A DNA stretch of 64,000 bases from a virus, in IMG/VR virus record IMGVR_UViG_3300019926_000016; one strand, 5' to 3'. Below the pieces are notes generated by a model, which searched no databases, was not told where the DNA came from, and saw only the letters and a program-made list of their open reading frames with translations. Numbering within the stretch: the stretch's first letter is position 1; each line of letters starts with the position of its first letter. This document shows positions 3,710-56,838 of this stretch, piece by piece. Made by a program: the position numbers and the translations under genes.

Positions 3710-3720
3710 AAAGACTTAAG
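3710..3720 (+). promoter_or_regulatory. repeated AAAGACTTAA motif (probable BRE-TATA)
   Basis: Same or near-identical 10-mer at 6041, 10259, 11295, 19619 and 36465; always intergenic, usually just after a stop codon. Confidence 0.6.
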
Positions 3721-3740: not shown

Positions 3741-3810
3741 GGGCGAAAGAAGGGAACAACCCTTCTCGGTTGAGAGGTAGCCGCCTCGACCCTGACGATG
3801 CCCAAGGCTT
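3741..3810 (+). ncRNA. type II hammerhead ribozyme HH1
   Basis: GGGC-GAAA-GAAGGG/CCCTTC-TC-GGTTGAG/CTCGACC-CTGACGA-T-GCCC; loop AGCC pairs with 3' GGCT; predicted cut after C3767. Confidence 0.9.
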
Positions 3811-3834
3811 CACGGGATGCAACCTTCCAAAACT

Positions 3835-4000: not shown

Positions 4001-4067
4001 GGGCGAAAGGGGAGAAATCCCCTCGGTTTCGAGATAGCCGCCGAAACCCTGACGATGCCCACGGCTT
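4001..4067 (+). ncRNA. type II hammerhead ribozyme HH2
   Basis: GGGC-GAAA-GGGGA/TCCCC-TC-GGTTTCG/CGAAACC-CTGACGA-T-GCCC-A-CGGCT; predicted cut after C4024. Confidence 0.9.
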
Positions 4068-4101: not shown

Positions 4102-4647
4102 ATGGCAGAAACTACGAGCGATAACGGCGATGCAACGACAGACTTCGACCCGTTCGACGGGTTTAACGTAGTAGATGAACTTCCGCTTCAGCAGTTCGTG
4201 GACTTCGGCTTCGATTCGTTCGGAGAGTACATCCACATCGTTCCCGACCCGGAACGGCGACAACTTCGGGTCTACCGTTCGGTGTCGGATGCAACCGAAG
4301 AAAACGAGCGGATTTCAACGGTGATAGATGACGTGAAAATCACCTATCACTACGACAACTACCGCAACGATAGGCCGGAAGTCAACCACTTCTACCTGAC
4401 TGGAACGGAAGCGATGACGTTCCTTTCATTTCTGGACCTTCTCGGTTCGGGTCGTGAAGGACGGCTCACCTTCGAGTGGTGGGAAGAGTCAGGGATGCCG
4501 ATGATGGAAGACGAAAAGACGGACATCGAGATTCTGACTTTCACGTTCGACAAGCCGAACGGCGTGAACCGAACAGTATCGATAGACAATCCGTGGCAAT
4601 CTCCGAAGGCTCACCGGATGGCGAATCTGGATGGTGAAGTGCTATGA
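4102..4647 (+). CDS. hypothetical protein
   Basis: 181-aa acidic ORF, ATG 77 nt after the HH2 cut site. Confidence 0.75.
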   Translation: MAETTSDNGDATTDFDPFDGFNVVDELPLQQFVDFGFDSFGEYIHIVPDPERRQLRVYRSVSDATEENERISTVIDDVKITYHYDNYRNDRPEVNHFYLTGTEAMTFLSFLDLLGSGREGRLTFEWWEESGMPMMEDEKTDIEILTFTFDKPNGVNRTVSIDNPWQSPKAHRMANLDGEVL

Positions 4648-6076: not shown

Positions 6077-6144
6077 GGGCGAAACGGGGACCGGCCCCGT
6101 CGAGAAGGAGGTAGCCGCCCTTCTCCTGATGATGCCCACGGCTT
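6077..6144 (+). ncRNA. type II hammerhead ribozyme HH3
   Basis: GGGC-GAAA-CGGGG/CCCCG-TC-GAGAAGG/CCTTCTC-CTGATGA-T-GCCC-A-CGGCT; GUC triplet, predicted cut after C6101. Confidence 0.92.
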
Positions 6145-9378: not shown

Positions 9379-10080
9379 ATGGAAGTCCTTGACGACAACG
9401 AGGTTAACTACCTCGTTCTGACGGACGATGGAAGTACAGTGACGAAGACCAAATCATCGAACCTGAACCAACTGCTCTTCGACCACAACCTCTACGGGTT
9501 GCTCGAAGAAGGCAGTGAAATATGGACGTGCAGTAACCCGGAAACAGCAGAACCGACAGTAACAATCATTCCCGACGATGATGCCGAGTGTTACACTGTT
9601 CGGGTTGGCAATACGATAGACCTGACTCTCGGAGCGCATCACAAGACCGATTTGGTTGATGCACTTGCTGAAGTGTATCAGGACCACGACGGCGACAGCG
9701 TGGTTCCTCTTCTGGACCTTATCGAGTCTATCCGTGAAGATATGGTCCGGGTTGAAGCCCTGAAGCCGTTCCTCGGGATTCTATCCGAGAAGGTCGAAGA
9801 AAGAGATGACGGCTGGTTCATCAACGGCCACCTGCTTCTGACCTACGAAGGTGACTTCCATCATCCTGCTACTGAGAGTCGGGAACGGTCGGGGCAATCA
9901 GTTATCGGTGTCGGGTCAAACGTCGGAGCGTACAGTCTCAATATCGACCCGCCGACGAGTGAGATTCGGCGTGAGGTAGAGTATGACGGCGAAACCTTCC
10001 GATTGACTGACTCGGAAGTGGACTTCATAGCCCGAACGTTGTGGGCTATCGAGAACACGCCCGACAGGAGGGATGACTAA
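9379..10080 (+). CDS. hypothetical protein
   Basis: 233-aa acidic ORF. Confidence 0.75.
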   Translation: MEVLDDNEVNYLVLTDDGSTVTKTKSSNLNQLLFDHNLYGLLEEGSEIWTCSNPETAEPTVTIIPDDDAECYTVRVGNTIDLTLGAHHKTDLVDALAEVYQDHDGDSVVPLLDLIESIREDMVRVEALKPFLGILSEKVEERDDGWFINGHLLLTYEGDFHHPATESRERSGQSVIGVGSNVGAYSLNIDPPTSEIRREVEYDGETFRLTDSEVDFIARTLWAIENTPDRRDD

Positions 10081-10256
10081 TGGCGTATTTCTGCACCAGA
10101 TGTGAGGCAGAAGAACATCCGAATATGCCCAAAGAGCGTGTTCGGAACGAATTTGAGCAAGATAGGAACCTGTCGGTGACAACCTATTGTGCCACTTGCT
10201 CATCCAATACGGTCCACATCTCGGACAGCGCGAAACGGCTATCGGAAATGACGTAA
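10080..10256 (+). CDS. small CxxC zinc-finger protein (58 aa, not in the ORF track)
   Basis: MAYFCTRCE...YCATCSS...; TAATG overlap. Confidence 0.65.
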   Translation: MAYFCTRCEAEEHPNMPKERVRNEFEQDRNLSVTTYCATCSSNTVHISDSAKRLSEMT

Positions 10257-10289
10257 CATAAGACTTAACCCTTCGGGGCTTGAGTCTTA

Positions 10290-10329
10290 GGATGAAAGGG
10301 CGGCGGGCAGTTCGATTCTGCCTCATCCC
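10290..10329 (+). ncRNA. mini-tRNA-like element (acceptor stem plus T-arm only)
   Basis: GGATGA/TCATCC stacked on GGCAG-TTCGATT-CTGCC; 10-nt linker in place of the D and anticodon arms; AAGACTTAA about 30 nt upstream. Confidence 0.6.
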
Positions 10330-10361
10330 GTTGCGCCAATCCCCGGCGTTCGGTTCAAATA

Positions 10362-11291
10362 GTGGGACACAACCGGAAAAAGATGACCTACTACGTAGTA
10401 GTTGACGACGAAACAAGCGAAAAGGTAGACGGGACCGAACGGTATGACCAAGAGTTCCGTGCAACGATAGATGCGTTCAAGTGGGAAGCCAAAAACCGTG
10501 GTTCCTTCTCAGTTGAAGAGCGCGAAGAGACAACCGAAGACGACTCCGAACATACAATGAGTGACTACGACTTCATCGGCAACGACGACGCACAGGACGA
10601 CAACCAGCAGACCACCGACGACTTCGACACCATCGGCAATATGTGGACCCTCGGGGACCACAGCACGGCGTCGGAGGGAGAACGGAACTACCTCACAGAG
10701 TCCATCCAGAACACGATGGAGGCTCTGGACGAAGACGTTGACGACGAACTAATGGGCGTTCTCCGAGACGCACAGGGCCTCGTCAGTGAGACGAGCATCA
10801 GTCGGTTCGAGTGTCCGGTGGAAGACTGTGGCCTCGGTCACAGCCACCCTGACCACAAGCACGACATTCGGTCGGGCTTCAACGTCGAAGAGGACTTCGT
10901 GGAGCAGATGAAGTTCTGTCCGTACTGTCACTGTGGCGTCAACGAACTGGCGATGCTGGTTCGGTTCTTCCCCTACATCAACCGTCCGGTGTTCACCGAC
11001 CAGCACGACTTTGAGGGCGTTCTGGAAGTCAACCCGGACGTTCTGGAAGCAGTCTATCGGACCTACAACGACGATGGGGTGAGCCTCAGTGTCGCCGCTG
11101 GTCGGGTCGCTTCTCGGCGCGGTCTGGACGAAGCAGAAGCAATCCCGCTCGGTGTTCGTGAAGACATTCAGGCGTTCTTCAATCGTCGTGACGCGATTCA
11201 GAACGCGGCTAACTCTGCTCCTATCGCTCAGGAGACTCGGGGTGTCATCGAGGCCGACCGAGAGGCACTTCAGGAGATGGTTTCCGAGTAG
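10362..11291 (+). CDS. hypothetical protein with Cys/His metal-binding motifs
   Basis: CPVEDCGLGHSHPDH and CPYCHC; start may be a downstream ATG. Confidence 0.75.
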   Translation: MGHNRKKMTYYVVVDDETSEKVDGTERYDQEFRATIDAFKWEAKNRGSFSVEEREETTEDDSEHTMSDYDFIGNDDAQDDNQQTTDDFDTIGNMWTLGDHSTASEGERNYLTESIQNTMEALDEDVDDELMGVLRDAQGLVSETSISRFECPVEDCGLGHSHPDHKHDIRSGFNVEEDFVEQMKFCPYCHCGVNELAMLVRFFPYINRPVFTDQHDFEGVLEVNPDVLEAVYRTYNDDGVSLSVAAGRVASRRGLDEAEAIPLGVREDIQAFFNRRDAIQNAANSAPIAQETRGVIEADREALQEMVSE

Positions 11292-11331: not shown

Positions 11332-11405
11332 GGGCGAAACGTCGGGTTGGTCCCCCGGCGTTGGGAACGAGATGGTCGCCGTTCCCCTGATGATGCCCAC
11401 GACCA
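11332..11405 (+). ncRNA. type II hammerhead ribozyme HH4
   Basis: GGGC-GAAA-CGTCGGG/CCCGGCG-TT-GGGAACG/CGTTCCC-CTGATGA-T-GCCC; pseudoknot changed to TGGTCG/CGACCA (compensatory); predicted cut after T11362. Confidence 0.92.
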
Positions 11406-13223: not shown

Positions 13224-13290
13224 GGGCGAAACGGGATTCTTCCCGTTGTCGGTGAGGTAGCCGCCACCGGCCTGACGATGCCCACGGCTT
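13224..13290 (+). ncRNA. type II hammerhead ribozyme HH5
   Basis: GGGC-GAAA-CGGGA/TCCCG-TT-GTCGGTG/CACCGGC-CTGACGA-T-GCCC-A-CGGCT; predicted cut after T13247. Confidence 0.9.
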
Positions 13291-18179: not shown

Positions 18180-18205
18180 AGGCGGTTCAAATCCGCCCGA
18201 ACCCA
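18180..18205 (+). mobile_element. putative attP core: 3' end of a tRNA gene
   Basis: GGCGG-TTCAAAT-CCGCC-CGAACCC-A (T-arm plus acceptor 3' strand) with no matching 5' half; about 60 nt upstream of the int start. Confidence 0.7.
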
Positions 18206-18422
18206 CCTCGCTCCCTCCGGTCACTCACGTAGACAGCACCGCCGCCGTCTTGCGATTTAGGGGGTAAGCCGTCACGCATTTCAACCGGGGACCTCCCCCG
18301 GCCTCCTTTCGTCCCGCGATTCTCCAACAAGTAGTTATTCGAAGGTAAAAAAGGCATCGTGCGTCCCGGTCACTGCAAAAGTCACCTCACTTTCGATAAA
18401 CCGTATGACGCGATACAGAATT

Positions 18423-20833: not shown

Positions 20834-21185
20834 TCACTTAAGTCCTAACAATCGTTTAACACAAACGGTAGTTTGAACGACAGGAAAAGACGGTTCCGAA
20901 GACTTGATTCCGAAGGAGTTAAGTCAATGGACCCCGTTTAGTGTAGTAGGGAGGTCGGAAAGACAGGCTACCGCCGCTTCTCGACCACCTATTCCGGGGT
21001 CGGAACCCTCGCGGGTCACTCATCCCGATACAGTCCATTTCGAAGTCGGGGCTTTCCTCCCCGCCACTCTCAAAACTTAAGAGAGTGAAGACTGTACGGG
21101 AGACTGAGGGCTATTCGCCCTCGGAAGGTTGTGTCCCGCCACTTCGGTTGGGATTCACGCGGGGTCTGGTCGCCCCGCTCTTCGT

Positions 21186-21260
21186 GCTTGCGAAGCTGAC
21201 TGGTTCAGCACAGCCCATTTGTAAGGCTGAGTTGGGTGCGTTCGAATCCACCCGCAAGCT
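21186..21260 (+). tRNA. tRNA-Thr(UGU)-like, atypical
   Basis: Acceptor GCTTGCG/CGCAAGC, D-stem GCTG/CAGC, anticodon stem CAGCC/GGCTG with a 9-nt loop CATTTGTAA, bulged T-stem. Confidence 0.7.
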
Positions 21261-21420
21261 TTGCCGTGTTGGACTCTCCGTGGTCTGACTCGGTTTTGAG
21301 AACATCACGGAGAGGTGACGCCCGACGCCTTCACCTATTCTGGACCAGTGGGAGAAAAACCACAACGGTATCGGGAAGGAGAGCCGTTGCCCGCGATACT
21401 CCACACTAAAGAAAGGGCGA

Positions 21421-21494
21421 CGGAACCAACTTCCACGCGGCAGGAAACGTGGCTGTAGACCACGCCGTTCTCGGTTCGAGGCCGAGGGTTCCGA
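21421..21494 (+). tRNA. tRNA-Tyr(GUA)
   Basis: Acceptor CGGAACC/GGTTCCG (C1-G72, A73), CGTGG-CTGTAGA-CCACG, CTCGG-TTCGAGG-CCGAG; lacks U8. Confidence 0.8.
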
Positions 21495-21619
21495 CTCGAT
21501 GGTTTGCTCGACCTGAGCCACAATAGAGAATGGTAAAATCTGGATAGTGGCGTATCCTATGCCGACGCCAGTGACATACCGGGATACCGGGAAGAAACGT
21601 TTGGCGTCTCATAAATACC

Positions 21620-21692
21620 ACGGGAGTAGGTTAGTTCGGCCAAACTTCCTGCATTGGCGCAGGAGCCTCGGGTTCAAATCCCGGCTTCCGTA
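21620..21692 (+). tRNA. tRNA-Pro(UGG)-like, atypical
   Basis: Acceptor ACGGGAG/CTTCCGT, T-loop TTCAAAT, anticodon stem CCTGC/GCAGG with a 6-nt loop ATTGGC. Confidence 0.65.
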
Positions 21693-21693
21693 T

Positions 21694-21774
21694 TGGAGAT
21701 AGCCGAGGCGCACGGCTTGGCGAAAGTATTGCACCACTGAGTGCGCTAACGGGGTTCGAGGCCCCAGTCTCCAC
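21694..21774 (+). ncRNA. degenerate tRNA-like element without a recognisable anticodon arm
   Basis: TGGAGAT/GTCTCCA, GCCG/CGGC D-like arm, GGGG-TTCGAGG-CCCC T-arm. Confidence 0.5.
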
Positions 21775-22211
21775 TCACCCCATCAGGAGTGACATTCCGA
21801 GATGGGGGCGTTCTGCGGCGTCTCGACTGCCACTGTGGAGCCTATGCCACCTCCACCGCTGGCCGGTCAGACAAAATATCCCGAACGACAGAGCGGGATT
21901 TATGAATAAAGTATGTTGAATTGTTAAATACGTTCTCTGTCAGGAGGTGCTACGATAAGTTCAATGACAAATCATAGAACTGGGTCATAAACGGAACCGT
22001 GCAGGGTGAACCGACGCCGAGCGGCGTGTCTCAAGCTGACCACACGAATAAGTGGCGATAAGAATTGCGACACCCACCTATGCAGAATATTATCTCTAAG
22101 ACTCTTCTTGCCGTCGTTTCTTCTTCTGTATGGGCTTCACAACCCACGACGGCCTTGACGCCGACTCCTAATCAGACGGGGTAAGCACCGGGCGTCTAAA
22201 CAAATTCGGAC

Positions 22212-22285
22212 AGTCCCGTAGGGTAGCAGGCCAATCCTGTTGGTCTTTGGAACCAACGACCTCGATTCAAATTCGAGCGGGACTA
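22212..22285 (+). tRNA. tRNA-Gln(UUG)
   Basis: Canonical cloverleaf AGTCCCG/CGGGACT (A1-U72), TTGGT-CTTTGGA-ACCAA, CTCGA-TTCAAAT-TCGAG. Confidence 0.9.
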
Positions 22286-23002: not shown

Positions 23003-23154
23003 CCTGCTACGCCGCTCGGGGGTCGTGGCCTGCGGTCAAACTTCCGGGTTTCCCTCGATTCCGACTCCCCGTGCGAGCGGGCGAGTCTGCGTAAACTTCC
23101 CTGCGGTGCTGGTTGAGAGATTGGTGTACGGCGGTTCGATTCCGTCGCTCTCAC
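22982..23154 (+). ncRNA. about 170-nt RNA with a tRNA-like domain
   Basis: GAGAGC/GCTCTC acceptor-like helix, GGCGG-TTCGATT-CCGTC T-arm, TACGCC/GGTGTA helix enclosing about 100 nt. Confidence 0.5.
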
Positions 23155-23285
23155 TTGAGGCCAAAGACTCGAAGCGCGAGAGTGGAGTCATACCAAAAGA
23201 CTCAAGCCGATGGGCCTCAACACTTTGAGTGAAGCACGTTGACGCTCGAAGTGGCGGTTCCGACAACGTGACACAACCTAAAACA

Positions 23286-35656: not shown

Positions 35657-36466
35657 ATGCCAATGCCTGAAACTGAAACACTCGAACTACGAACCGATAC
35701 GGTAGAACAACTGATTGACCTTCTCGAAGCATCCAGTGCTGGTGAAGCGGGCCAAATTATGCCCCGCGACCGCCGCCGGGCTGTGGCAGGCCGTCTCAAG
35801 CGACAGATTTCTCGACCGGATGCGATTGCACTTTGCGGCCTTCCCGGTGCTGGCAAGTCCTACGCCGCTGATAAACTCAGTACGGTGTACGACGCTCCGG
35901 TTGTCTCGATGGGTGATGCAATCCGTCAGAGTTTCAAAGAAGAGTACGGAACCGTTGACGACTCTGAACAGCTTGGAGAATACGCCGCACGATGGCGGGG
36001 CGAGAACCCGGAGGGGATACCTGAAAAAGTCACTGACATCGTTGACCAGCGGTATTCCGCAGGGACCGAAACTCCGTTGTTCATCATCGACGGCGTTCGC
36101 TCTGTCACGGACTATGAAGTGTTGAACGGCTACTTCGACAACTTCCACCTTCTCGAAGTGAAAACGAATTTCTACGCCCGTCTTTCACGGATTGCTGACC
36201 GTGGGAGAGAAGGAGAAGAATCGTTCCAAGCCGTAGACTTGGCAGAACGTGACACTCGGGAACTGCTCGACCTCGGCTTCAAGGAACTTCGAGAAGGCGA
36301 TTACATCGACTTAGAAGTAAAAAACGGAACCGGGCCGGATAAGTTGGCAATTCGTCTCTCGTCAGTGGTGGAGAACAACCTTTCCTACGACATCGAGAAC
36401 GGCGAACCGCTCGGAACCACATACAAACTGGAAGAGATGCGGCAACGAGTATCGACTGGGAAGTAA
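35657..36466 (+). CDS. P-loop nucleoside-monophosphate kinase (dephospho-CoA-kinase-like fold)
   Basis: GLPGAGKS, SMGDAIR, IIDGVRS, RLSRIADRGR. Confidence 0.8.
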   Translation: MPMPETETLELRTDTVEQLIDLLEASSAGEAGQIMPRDRRRAVAGRLKRQISRPDAIALCGLPGAGKSYAADKLSTVYDAPVVSMGDAIRQSFKEEYGTVDDSEQLGEYAARWRGENPEGIPEKVTDIVDQRYSAGTETPLFIIDGVRSVTDYEVLNGYFDNFHLLEVKTNFYARLSRIADRGREGEESFQAVDLAERDTRELLDLGFKELREGDYIDLEVKNGTGPDKLAIRLSSVVENNLSYDIENGEPLGTTYKLEEMRQRVSTGK

Positions 36467-36572
36467 AGACTTAACTCCCCACGGTTCAATTGTTTAGTAC
36501 GGAGACTCATTCTCCGGTGTCTCGAAACCGCCCTCGACCTTCCGGGTCGGGCGGCGGGACACAACCTGACCA

Positions 36573-42748: not shown

Positions 42749-44218
42749 ATGGCTGAATATTGTGTTTTCTGCGGCATTGAGTTTTCTCTTCAAGAAATCT
42801 GGTATCCGTACAAACACCTCAAAAATTGCGACGAACATTCAACAATGCAAACTAACACACATATCAGCGGCTCAAGTACCAATGCAAAAGTAATGCTCCC
42901 CGAATCGGAGCTTGAAGAAGGAGTCGTAGACCAGATTCAGGAAATGATAGACCACGAATCGTTCCAAAACGATGTGGCTATTATGCCGGATACGCACGTC
43001 GGAAGCGGCGCAGTTATCGGCTTTACGATGCCTCTCGGGGAACGTGTAGTTCCGAACACAATCGGAGTAGACATTGGTTGTGGGATGTACGCCGTGAACT
43101 TCGGGAACGTGGAATACGACCGGAAGACCCTGCAACTGTGGGACGAAGAAATCCGCGAGAAAGTTCCGATGGGGTTCGAGGTTCGACAAGATAGAGCCTA
43201 CCACCTCCTGAACGACTTCCCGTGGAAGAAAGCACGAGAAAAGCTTGCACAATTCGAAGAACAGTACGGCGGTCTTCGTAGTGATGTGTGGCGGTTCGAA
43301 CCAGAACTTGCGATGGATTACTTCGAAGACCTGTGCAACCGCATCGGCTACGACCAGACTCGTGCCATCAACTCGGTCGGGTCACTCGGTGGCGGTAATC
43401 ACTTCATCGAACTTGGTCACAGCGACAAGACCGGATTGTGGGCCATCATCCACAGTGGAAGCCGTGGCCTCGGGCTAAATATTGCTCAGTACCATCAGGA
43501 ACGCGCAGTTGAACTTCGAAGTGCCGAAAAGTTCGAGAAGAACGTTCTGCCTGAATATTATCGGGAGTACGCCACCGATGAATTGAAACCGAAAGCAGAC
43601 AAAATCCGTGAAGACTTCGAGGGAACCGAAATCGGACAAGTGTTCGACAAAATCAGCCAAGCTCGTCAGGAAGCAACTGAAGCGTTCAATGATGACCTTG
43701 CATACCTCGAAGGAGCAGAGGCGCACCAATACTTCGTGGATATGATTTTCGCTCAGATGTACGCTTCCCAGTCGCGGAAGCTGATAATGTCGAAGGTCGC
43801 TGAAGTCGTCGGAGCAATCCCAAAGTGTCCTATCGAGAGCGTTCACAACTTCATCGACTTCGAGGATATGACCATCCGAAAAGGTGCGACTCGTGCTTCT
43901 GAAGGCGAAATTGCCGTTGTTCCCTTCAATATGAGGGACGGGACGCTTCTCGTGGAGGGGAAAGGAAACGACCGATGGAATAACTCGGCTCCGCACGGAG
44001 CGGGTCGGGTAATGTCTCGGACTCAAGCGTTCGATGAACTGGACCTGAGAGACTTCAAGAAAACTATGGACGGTGTAGAGTCTTCGTCAGTGACCGAAGA
44101 GACGTTGGACGAAGCACCAATGGCGTACAAGTCTTCCGGCCTTATCGAGTCGGCCATTGAACCGACCGCTGAGATAGTGGACCAAATTCGACCAGTCTTG
44201 AATCTGAAGGCAGAGTGA
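42749..44218 (+). CDS. rtcB: RtcB RNA 2',3'-cyclic phosphate/3'-phosphate to 5'-OH ligase
   Basis: MPDTHVG, GVDIGCG, GSLGGGNHFIE, IHSGSRG, HNF, RKGA, SAPHGAGR, DEAPMAYK; second possible start ATG 42845. Confidence 0.97.
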   Translation: MAEYCVFCGIEFSLQEIWYPYKHLKNCDEHSTMQTNTHISGSSTNAKVMLPESELEEGVVDQIQEMIDHESFQNDVAIMPDTHVGSGAVIGFTMPLGERVVPNTIGVDIGCGMYAVNFGNVEYDRKTLQLWDEEIREKVPMGFEVRQDRAYHLLNDFPWKKAREKLAQFEEQYGGLRSDVWRFEPELAMDYFEDLCNRIGYDQTRAINSVGSLGGGNHFIELGHSDKTGLWAIIHSGSRGLGLNIAQYHQERAVELRSAEKFEKNVLPEYYREYATDELKPKADKIREDFEGTEIGQVFDKISQARQEATEAFNDDLAYLEGAEAHQYFVDMIFAQMYASQSRKLIMSKVAEVVGAIPKCPIESVHNFIDFEDMTIRKGATRASEGEIAVVPFNMRDGTLLVEGKGNDRWNNSAPHGAGRVMSRTQAFDELDLRDFKKTMDGVESSSVTEETLDEAPMAYKSSGLIESAIEPTAEIVDQIRPVLNLKAE

Positions 44219-55527: not shown

Positions 55528-56838
55528 TTATCCGCCGTTCCCGATGGTAACGGTGTTCTCGATGAACCGAAGCGGTTCAACAAGGTCAACCTGCATCTCC
55601 AGTCCGGCAGTCACCGCGTCTTCCTTCAGAACGTTGACTTCGTAACTGATGACGACGTTCGACTCTTGAAGTTGGGTCAACTGTTCACTGACCATCCCTT
55701 CGAGCGTGTTGCGAACAGTCGCACTGTTCAACTTTCCAATGAAGGGCTTCTGATTGTCGCGGGTAGTCTCGATAATGTAGTCAGCGACGAGACGGTTGAA
55801 GCCGTACTTCAGGTTGCCTTCATCTGTGTTGGAGTCCGAGACGGTCGTGGGGTCATCCACGATACGAACACCGCGTGCCTCGTCAGCAAGCGGAACAACC
55901 TGATTGTCTATCAGACTGCCTCTCTGTGCGCGATTCATCGAGTCGGCTTGGAAACCAGCAATCCGCTTGTTCGTACTCAGACGCTTGTTGATAGGCGTCG
56001 TGTCAAGACCGAGTTGGGCCTTGAAACCAACATAGGCCGCCACAGCAGAAGTCTTGTCCTCGAACCGAGTCGGATAGACAACTTGAGTCCGGCTGTCGTC
56101 GTACTGTTGGGTGAAGTTGCTGGTATCGGAAACGTGGATGTCAGCCCCACCAACGGCAAGGGCAAGGTCGTAGTCTTCTTCCATATTCCCGACAGTAAGG
56201 TTCGCATCGTCCACAACATCTTGATTCTCCGAGAGCGGAGTCAAGAAGTCGATAACGTCAGGAACCTTGTCAACCATCACGTCAATCCCGCCGGAATAAT
56301 CGAAGTGGTCGTAACTGATGTCCAAAGAAGTGGACGGAACAGCGTTCACTTCAACCTTCCCACGAACGGGATTGACGTAACACTCGCCAGTTTTCGGAGA
56401 GTAGGTCGAAACGTCGTCGTAGACGATATTCGGAGTCTGGTCGGTCCCATCCAGAGAGACAGTTACATCATCCGCGTCTTCTCTTATCGGGGCGTTATCG
56501 AGTTCAACCGTAGTGCTGGAAGCACTCGAATGGTCTTCATCAGTAACCGAAGTCGCTTCGGCAACTGCGGCATAGACCGGGTACGCGTCTTCATTGAGAG
56601 CGTCAATAACGCCCTGCGTAAGAAGACTCGAATCTTTCGGGCCGAACCATTCGACCGCTTTGGAAGCGCGGGTTACTTGATAGACTTTGCTGGTGTCAGC
56701 CGGACTGGTCGCGTTAGCGAGGTCTGCCTGACCAACGATACCGAGATTACTGGGAGCCTCACCAGAAGTCGGCACTGCCGCCGAAGAGGTAAGGTCAGTA
56801 ATAATACCGGGTTCTTGATTGTCGCCGTAAGTAGTCAT
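55528..56838 (-). CDS. contractile tail sheath protein
   Basis: PGIITD..S, VEWFGP.S.L, C-terminal RLVADYI...FIGKLN...LVEPLRFI. Confidence 0.9.
   Translation of the reverse strand: MTTYGDNQEPGIITDLTSSAAVPTSGEAPSNLGIVGQADLANATSPADTSKVYQVTRASKAVEWFGPKDSSLLTQGVIDALNEDAYPVYAAVAEATSVTDEDHSSASSTTVELDNAPIREDADDVTVSLDGTDQTPNIVYDDVSTYSPKTGECYVNPVRGKVEVNAVPSTSLDISYDHFDYSGGIDVMVDKVPDVIDFLTPLSENQDVVDDANLTVGNMEEDYDLALAVGGADIHVSDTSNFTQQYDDSRTQVVYPTRFEDKTSAVAAYVGFKAQLGLDTTPINKRLSTNKRIAGFQADSMNRAQRGSLIDNQVVPLADEARGVRIVDDPTTVSDSNTDEGNLKYGFNRLVADYIIETTRDNQKPFIGKLNSATVRNTLEGMVSEQLTQLQESNVVISYEVNVLKEDAVTAGLEMQVDLVEPLRFIENTVTIGNGG

Follow-up and report, generated by a model that had tools for sequence, protein, structure and literature searches.

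Haloarchaea possess t-elements, tRNA-like folds that are not tRNAs; RNase P and tRNase Z cut there and so fix the termini of adjacent RNAs. Those of Haloferax are nearer to the size of a full tRNA, and full-size t-elements are already used in haloarchaeal genetics for making crRNAs. In Haloferax volcanii they include a tRNA-like structure upstream of the 5S rRNA (Hölzle 2008, 2012, as summarised in PMC4326828 and PMC4946936). These elements are cellular and few, whereas the mini-tRNA described here is viral, ~42 nt long with stems of 5 + 6 bp, present in 2–5 copies per genome and alternating with hammerheads, and its cleavage is predicted.

Related folds occur in other settings. mascRNA (MALAT1/MEN-beta) and the MHV68 TMER units are tRNA-like folds in longer transcripts that are cut by host RNase P and/or tRNase Z. 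There, too, the cuts form the ends of a neighbouring functional RNA, but the folds are eukaryotic or herpesviral, full cloverleaf-like and found once per transcript. Plant mitochondria also use tRNA punctuation, and we know of no plant mitochondrial t-element that interchanges with a ribozyme. In these organelles, tRNA or tRNA-like folds with a GGTTCRANYCC T-arm lie between cistrons, cuts by RNase P and RNase Z create mRNA 5' and 3' ends, and excised elements gain non-encoded C/A (PMC1920247, PMC3790967); they differ from the mini-tRNA in being organellar, cloverleaf-like and ~70 nt long. The coaxial acceptor/T stack capped by a T-loop is also the design of synthetic minihelices (McClain, Guerrier-Takada and Altman 1987, as cited in PMC11143913 and PMC3714273). 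Whereas such a minihelix is a continuous 12-bp laboratory hairpin, the mini-tRNA is natural, has 11 bp and carries in its 5' strand a linker of 9–11 nt with a GG that probably restores the elbow.

A tRNA-like element between two early genes

The window, that is, the whole 64,000-nucleotide stretch of DNA analysed here, belongs to a tailed haloarchaeal virus of the Hafunaviridae type and encodes an HSP90-like ATPase, Dcd, a helicase, PolB, RtcB, an integrase and a tRNA cluster. It has no close sequenced isolate, and a megablast search of phage records with 25 kb of it returned no match; the nearest named relatives, HSTV-2 and HRTV-7, share ~72% nucleotide identity with it over 200 nt. The tRNA cluster (21186–22285, + strand) comprises four tRNA or tRNA-like genes, with the anticodon of one uncalled; Rfam finds 21186–21260, which ARAGORN misses, and ARAGORN finds 21421–21495, which Rfam misses.

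The mini-tRNA is housed in a 126-nt gap (10257–10382) between a 58-aa CxxC-type ORF (10080–10256) and a 302-aa ORF (10383–11291) that is a homologue of HSTV-2 gene 90. The best relatives of the 302-aa protein, at most 66% identical, are found in hypersaline metagenome contigs, and identity to the proteins of HSTV-2, HRTV-7, HCTV-6 and others is ~40%. With its conserved flanks, the element occupies 10289–10331 on the + strand, as delimited by its sequence, the covariance model R2, covariation in alignment A6 and column conservation. From 5' to 3' it consists of A(−1) at 10289, an outer ("acceptor") stem of 5 bp (GGAUG/CAUCC, 10290–10294 with 10324–10328), a linker at 10295–10304 in the family register, with the family-invariant GG inside the GGG at 10298–10300, an inner ("T") stem of 6 bp (GGGCAG/CUGCCU, 10305–10310 with 10318–10323) and the T-loop UUCGAUU (TTCGATT in the DNA, 10311–10317). 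The 3' flank, C-G-U (10329–10331, with U(+3) at 10331), does not encode CCA.

The first-pass annotation of this locus had described a 40-nt mini-tRNA with acceptor and T-arm only. Its letters are correct (GGATGA at 10290–10295, GGCAG/TTCGATT/CTGCC at 10306–10322 and TCATCC at 10323–10328), and a D arm and an anticodon arm are indeed absent, with just 10 nt between the two helices. Other details need revision. The helices are contiguous on the 3' strand, but on the 5' side a 10-nt linker (10296–10305, AAGGGCGGCG) intervenes. Five pairs of the proposed 6-bp outer helix stand, but the sixth, A10295–T10323, is specific to the window, the family pairing T10323 with G10305 instead. The base at the 3' junction pairs with the last linker base (G-C in 20 copies, C-G in 7, A-U in 1), which gives stems of 5 and 6 bp; a mismatch between A10295 and the base at that junction was ruled out by RNAalifold and the pair counts. 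Family covariation thus yields 5 + 6 = 11 stacked pairs, as against 7 + 5 = 12 in a tRNA. The conserved element is slightly larger than those 40 nt, with A(−1) (10289) in 27/30 copies and U(+3) (10331) in 26/30. The thermodynamic fold of the lone 40-mer, which has another inner pairing and is not significant (z −1.0), was dropped for the fold supported by covariation.

ARAGORN called no tRNA gene at the mini-tRNA site, and the sole Rfam match in the intergenic region at E ≤ 10 is a 17-nt tmRNA T-arm fragment with 8.4 bits. At gathering thresholds Rfam gave no match in the whole window, though a permissive E-value run gives tRNAs above threshold. No Rfam ribozyme family matches the mini-tRNA region, and 10257–10382 contains neither the hammerhead core (CUGANGA/GAAA) nor an Rfam hammerhead match. 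Compared with a canonical tRNA (RF00005), the element lacks the cloverleaf and the 7 + 5 stack and has the T-loop, the G53–C61 equivalent and the GG; as a non-tRNA fold that retains the acceptor/T-arm domain, it answers to the structural part of the definition of a t-element. Viral 3' tRNA-like structures of the TYMV/BMV type are genome-terminal, with a pseudoknotted acceptor arm and an aminoacylatable CCA end, whereas this element is internal, belongs to a dsDNA virus and has a plain acceptor helix.

Two further hairpins frame the mini-tRNA. Hairpin 1 (10259–10289, + strand; stem (U)AAGACUU/GAGUCUU(A); MFE −15.8 kcal/mol, z −3.9) contains AAGACTTAAC and directly abuts the 5' side of the element, and in 12 relatives it is also predicted by RNAalifold, the changes including C-G to G-U and double substitutions in the inner stem. 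Hairpin 3 (10333–10349, + strand; GCGCC/GGCGU with a 7-nt loop) begins 2 nt past the conserved U(+3) and is predicted by RNAalifold in 12/12 close relatives; distant copies have a hairpin of other sequence in its place (CCCGC/GCGGG, GACG/CGTC, GTCGA/TCGAC or GGTCC/GGACC). A motif scan located GGGACACAACC at 10364–10374 (+ strand), 8 nt upstream of the ATG at 10383, and among relatives this motif is near-invariant, 0–10 nt ahead of the start codon. A/T-rich boxes between hairpin 3 and GGGACACAACC were considered as TATA boxes of a leaderless mRNA and rejected, lying just 12–18 nt before the conserved ATG in most relatives.

Motifs of these kinds recur in the window. GGGACRCAACC and near variants stand 0–10 nt before start codons at 3814, 6148, 10364, 23268, 25304 and 36556 (+ strand) and at 21137 (− strand), downstream of hammerheads and mini-tRNAs alike; the HF2 version is GGGTGACACCG. 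GGGACRCAACC presumably has no complementarity to the anti-Shine-Dalgarno sequence. On the upstream side, AAGACTTAAC resembles the alpha motif CTAAAGACTTAGAA of the HF2 class I IR, which is promoter-associated (PMC8707807), and motifs of the AAGACTTAAC type are probably promoter elements. A further region, 36465–36556 (+ strand), has AAAGACTTAAC and then GGTTCAATTGTTTAGTA, resembling the HF2 class I intergenic-repeat promoter, followed by a ~60-nt GC-rich stretch and GGGACACAACC-ATG, with no Rfam match; the two-part motif AAAGACTTAAC/GGTTCAATTGTTTAGTA also occurs in loci L020 and L023.

A conserved, strand-specific RNA family

The mini-tRNA is a real, conserved, strand-specific RNA family. The covariance model R2, trained solely on 35 matches from relatives with no window sequence and searched with filters off, recovered 10287–10331 with 55.2 bits (E 2.8e-12). 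A second copy in the window, at 23114–23155 (+ strand), scored 33.2 bits (E 2.7e-6); the remaining matches in the window reached at most 13 bits, and its real tRNAs at most 9 bits. The second copy, also found by a structural scan (23115–23152), has the outer stem GAGAG/CUCUC, the linker AUUGGUGUA, the inner stem CGGCGG/CCGUCG and the loop TTCGATT, and its AAAGACTC-type motifs lie downstream of the element, not upstream. The structural scanner gave two matches on the + strand of the window and none on the − strand, as compared with a mean of 0.097 matches on both strands in dinucleotide shuffles of the window, 2 of 300 of which reached two.

Related loci were obtained with an alignment query; a single-protein query yielded none. 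Some JGI contigs have a region 100% identical to the window and are uninformative for covariation. In eight relatives, the regions upstream of the orthologous gene are alignable and show this three-part module too, both stems having undergone compensatory changes. The first-pass annotation had offered a lack of conservation in relatives as a way to refute its proposal; this challenge clearly fails, since each relative that was examined keeps the element, with such changes. Across the 30 distinct copies of alignment A6, 98.7% of cells are paired, double-sided changes occur in 10 of the 11 pairs and the outer stem is 100% paired. The alignment reaches a covariation score of 0.896, whereas shuffles give 0.20 and slid partners 0.17–0.27, and RNAalifold, applied to whole modules with no input structure, returns hairpin 1, the mini-tRNA and hairpin 3.

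Conservation of the letters is concentrated in a few unpaired or loop-closing positions. The T-loop is UUCGAYU in 29/30 copies, the G-C pair that closes it is present in 30/30, like G53–C61 of tRNA, and the linker GG has its first G in 30/30 and its second in 25/30, while the stems drift freely. Every match is intergenic and lies on the gene (sense) strand, and nine cells of the alignment are G-U pairs, which on the other strand would be C-A mismatches; the mini-tRNA therefore acts as a sense-strand RNA. The loose pattern GGCGGCGNNNNGTTCGAYTC matches hundreds of unrelated, mostly bacterial, loci. In a specificity control on 760 kb of unrelated viral loci drawn from that pattern, the covariance model accepted just 3 of 80, one of which shares a hypersaline metagenome with several relatives.

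Among Hafunaviridae, each complete relative has 2–5 copies (G001–G005, HSTV-2, HRTV-7, HCTV-6 and HF2), and the model search found no member in HGTV-1, which is of another family. The HF2 members (AF222060.2, locus L282) are at 2903–2947 and 4373–4416. HSTV-2 has a member at 56116–56160 (NC_020159) and HRTV-7 one at 56667–56711. In HSTV-2 (L001), the orthologous position (2467–2509) has a 5-bp outer stem, a 14-nt 5' linker, a 6-bp inner stem and the loop TTCACGA; this element was missed by the covariance model and may be a degenerate or diverged member. The sites are unannotated in the feature tables of HSTV-2, HRTV-7, HCTV-6 and HF2, and we found no published description or Rfam family of the mini-tRNA.

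Interchange with type II hammerheads

The early block of the window has five type II hammerheads on the + strand (3741–3803, 4001–4060, 6077–6137, 11332–11398 and 13224–13283), and these occupy the corresponding slot of neighbouring intergenic regions, as the first-pass annotation had pointed out. Just one of the five, with 31.9 bits, comes close to the Rfam gathering score of 37, and the others were found by the shared core GGGCGAAA ... CTGAYGATGCCC. The hammerheads at 3741, 6077 and 11332 are preceded by an AAAGACT(T/C)AA-type motif and followed by GGGACRCAACC-ATG, like the mini-tRNA. In the motif scan, AAGACTTAAC was also found upstream of hammerheads, at 3710, 6041 and 11295, and GGGACACAACC also lies downstream of hammerheads in the neighbouring intergenic regions.

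The two elements replace one another between orthologous genes. After the 302-aa gene, a hammerhead is present in the window and in L007, L009, L012, L013, L014, L016, L017, L020 and L028, and a mini-tRNA in HSTV-2, L023 and the L026/L030/L031/L037 group, and the genes that flank the swapped region on either side are orthologous. This swap supports an equivalence of the mini-tRNA with the hammerheads. The idea that it is an alternative to ribozyme leaders is in part supported, and "leader" is better replaced by intergenic punctuation. The numbers of hammerheads and mini-tRNAs vary widely, from 5 and 2 in the window to 0 and 4 in G005; HSTV-2, G004 and G005 have no detectable type II hammerhead, yet mini-tRNAs are present in all three.

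The described halovirus type II hammerheads (HHphage of HF1/HF2; PMC3088659; RF02276) have the same slot, strand and motifs as the mini-tRNA (AAAGACTTAA-type upstream and GGGACRCAACC-ATG downstream), and their cleavage site in HF1/HF2 coincides with a mapped 5' end (PMC3088659). Both elements would leave hairpin-capped RNA ends, the hairpins being stems III and I for the hammerhead and hairpins 1 and 3 for the mini-tRNA. They would differ in chemistry. Whereas hammerhead ends are 5'-OH and 2',3'-cyclic phosphate, a cut at the mini-tRNA would depend on host enzymes and leave 5'-P and 3'-OH ends. The window also encodes an RtcB RNA ligase (42749–44218, + strand; PF01139, E 4e-61), which could seal the ends that hammerheads leave (5'-OH, 2',3'-cyclic phosphate), but not the products of RNase P and tRNase Z.

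Candidate processing and competing explanations

We consider it somewhat more probable than an even chance that the mini-tRNA is a t-element of minimal size at which host RNase P and tRNase Z cut, punctuating viral transcripts. Processing by host enzymes is proposed because the element corresponds to that half of a tRNA which is read by RNase P, tRNase Z and the CCA-adding enzyme, and because haloarchaeal t-elements are processed in vivo. [quoted passage not shown] Haloferax t-elements are cut in vivo by RNase P and tRNase Z (PMC4326828, PMC4946936), and t-elements define mRNA ends in plant mitochondria (PMC1920247). In HF2, long transcripts were seen by RT-PCR as against Northern species of 1–2.5 kb, which the authors ascribe to processing (PMC8707807).

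Under the proposed mechanism, a family member of ~42 nt, with a 5-bp acceptor-like stem on a 6-bp T-stem, a canonical T-loop and a 9–11-nt linker, would fold in read-through transcripts into the tRNA half recognised by RNase P, tRNase Z and the CCA-adding enzyme. The linker GG would mimic G18–G19 of the D-loop and close the tRNA "elbow" with the T-loop (U55, C56). RNase P is predicted to cut at the 5' edge, at or 1 nt before the helix, so that the upstream mRNA would end in hairpin 1. tRNase Z is predicted to cut 2 nt past the helix, before the conserved U, and the downstream mRNA would then start with hairpin 3, followed by GGGACACAACC and the ATG. The mini-tRNA, by way of host enzymes, would in this manner do the same as hammerhead self-cleavage, both splitting polycistronic or read-through early transcripts and capping the mRNA ends with hairpins. 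The edges of the element fit the predicted cut sites: A(−1) is present in 27/30 copies, U(+3) in 26/30, and each edge is abutted by a hairpin. RNase Z of B. subtilis is reported to be activated by a downstream U, according to the title of a work cited in PMC3714273.

The element had also been called promoter-proximal. This is plausible in the window, where AAGACTTAAC resembles the HF2 alpha motif, but other members are located after stop codons or upstream of a promoter-like motif (L013b, L016b, L020b, L023a and the window copy at 23115). Copies L013b, L016b, L023a and L020b begin 0–7 nt past a stop codon, have the following ATG ~27 nt away and lack a promoter-like motif, and are therefore probably internal to a transcript.

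Two findings bear on the t-element reading from the other side. The 11-bp stack counts against it, since tRNA enzymes measure 12 bp, and a twelfth layer would have to be formed by A(−1) and N(+1) in a non-Watson-Crick manner. With such stacking, N(+2) would be the discriminator, the trailer would start with U and RNase P would leave A as the 5' nucleotide. The reading further requires that haloarchaeal RNase P and tRNase Z take a substrate with neither a D nor an anticodon arm. The second finding concerns the HF2 5' end T-4384, obtained by primer extension (PMC8707807) and the sole published 5' end near a family member in HF2. It maps to the first G of the linker GG, 8 nt inside the HF2 copy at 4376–4414, and so neither to the 5' edge nor to the predicted tRNase Z site near 4416. 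If T-4384 is a true start, the 5' acceptor strand would be missing from RNAs made at the adjacent promoter, and the element could be formed in read-through RNAs alone. Promoter geometry as in HF2, applied to the window (TTAA at 10265–10268), likewise predicts a start near 10293–10298, inside the element, and the cloned HF2 promoter fragments IRA and IRCc overlap both HF2 copies. The long F2 transcript of HF2 has its 5' limit in an intergenic region (PMC8707807, Fig. S2 legend), and this is the region that carries the first HF2 copy (2903–2947). In that case the perfect covariation of the outer stem would imply that the functional form arises in read-through RNAs, and such a form fits the long RT-PCR and short Northern species of HF2 as well as the copies placed after stop codons or upstream of a promoter-like motif.

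These same two findings also speak for an uncleaved structural or regulatory RNA, in which the T-loop-capped helix binds a protein or blocks exonucleases and tunes mRNA stability or downstream translation. We regard this as unlikely, yet as an explanation to be taken seriously. Structure and loop are conserved, and cleavage is a prediction; T-4384 within the HF2 copy means that at least some RNAs start there and would open with the T-arm hairpin alone (PMC8707807); the stack has 11 bp rather than 12; and the element is always near the conserved GGGACACAACC-ATG region. The possible binders, a tRNA-modifying enzyme, EF-1alpha or a viral CxxC zinc-finger protein, are put forward with the same reserve. 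A purely structural role would leave three things unexplained, namely the 100% pairing of the outer stem if its 5' strand is often untranscribed, the swap with a self-cleaving ribozyme at an orthologous region, and the hairpins at both edges.

Excision by RNase P and tRNase Z is compatible with a different purpose, in which the released RNA is itself the product: a CCA-tailed tRNA mimic of ~45 nt, in several variants, serving as a decoy or sponge, a primer or a cofactor. The invariance of the T-loop and the elbow GG on drifting stems, as if generic tRNA shape alone mattered, would suit a decoy, as would the presence of several copies per genome and of deviant tRNA genes and RtcB in the same viruses, which suggests an interest in host tRNA biology. 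A decoy, though, has no need for slots shared with hammerheads or for end-capping hairpins, and we judge this role distinctly improbable. The CCA-adding enzyme, modification enzymes and tRNA-directed defence nucleases, proposed as its targets, are equally doubtful, and the lack of an anticodon arm rules out anticodon nucleases.

A relic or site at the level of DNA, such as a tRNA gene cut short, a core resembling attP or a hotspot of recombination that arose from the 3' halves of tRNAs, is very improbable. Partial tRNAs serve as attP in viruses of the HF1/HF2 group (PMC7230728, PMC8707807), and a T-arm with a 3' acceptor strand is the content of such sites. The window integrase, however, has its own: the tyrosine integrase gene (PF00589, 17113–18117, − strand) adjoins a partial tRNA (18181–18210, + strand; T-arm GGCGG/TTCAAAT/CCGCC plus CGAACCCACC), which is probably the attP of the virus, in an arrangement as in HF1/HF2 (PMC8707807). 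The mini-tRNA is 7 kb away from it, between unrelated early genes and not adjacent to the integrase, and identity to the 3' part of a host tRNA was not found. An exact search with its T-arm/3'-strand 23-mer returned nothing from 185,579 species genomes, among which the host may be absent, from JGI metagenome contigs or from IMG/VR. Moreover, covariation ties the 3' strand to the 5' strand, for which an attP has no use, and the copies are strand-specific with G-U pairs.

A new small self-cleaving or otherwise catalytic RNA in place of the hammerhead is scarcely credible, for although the two interchange in position and the linker and loop have conserved unpaired nucleotides, these are exactly those of the tRNA T-loop and the D-loop GG, no Rfam ribozyme matches, and an active site would find little to build on in a plain helix of 11 bp with a single bulge.

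The mini-tRNA takes the t-element idea into viruses in a new, minimal form and is interchangeable with hammerheads. Were cleavage to occur as proposed, it would represent tRNA punctuation in an archaeal virus, by what is to our knowledge the smallest tRNA-like signal in nature, used interchangeably with a self-cleaving ribozyme. It would also give archaeal RNase P and tRNase Z a naturally occurring minimal substrate (11 bp plus the GG linker) and possibly haloarchaeal genetics a compact processing cassette driven by host enzymes. A more speculative and rather unlikely extension is that hafunaviruses run two interchangeable systems of mRNA punctuation with different end chemistries, RtcB-joinable hammerhead ends as against irreversible mini-tRNA cuts that would release a CCA-taggable 42-nt tRNA mimic of the smallest natural class known, so that the choice of element would set the fate of the mRNA. 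Hammerhead products could then be religated or circularised by the viral RtcB, and RNase P/tRNase Z products could not.

The family accounts for conserved non-coding blocks in the early regions of HSTV-2, HRTV-7, HCTV-6 and HF2. Its interchange with hammerheads provides a comparative handle on the role of intergenic hammerheads in phages and archaeal viruses, and the answer that it suggests is the definition of mRNA ends.
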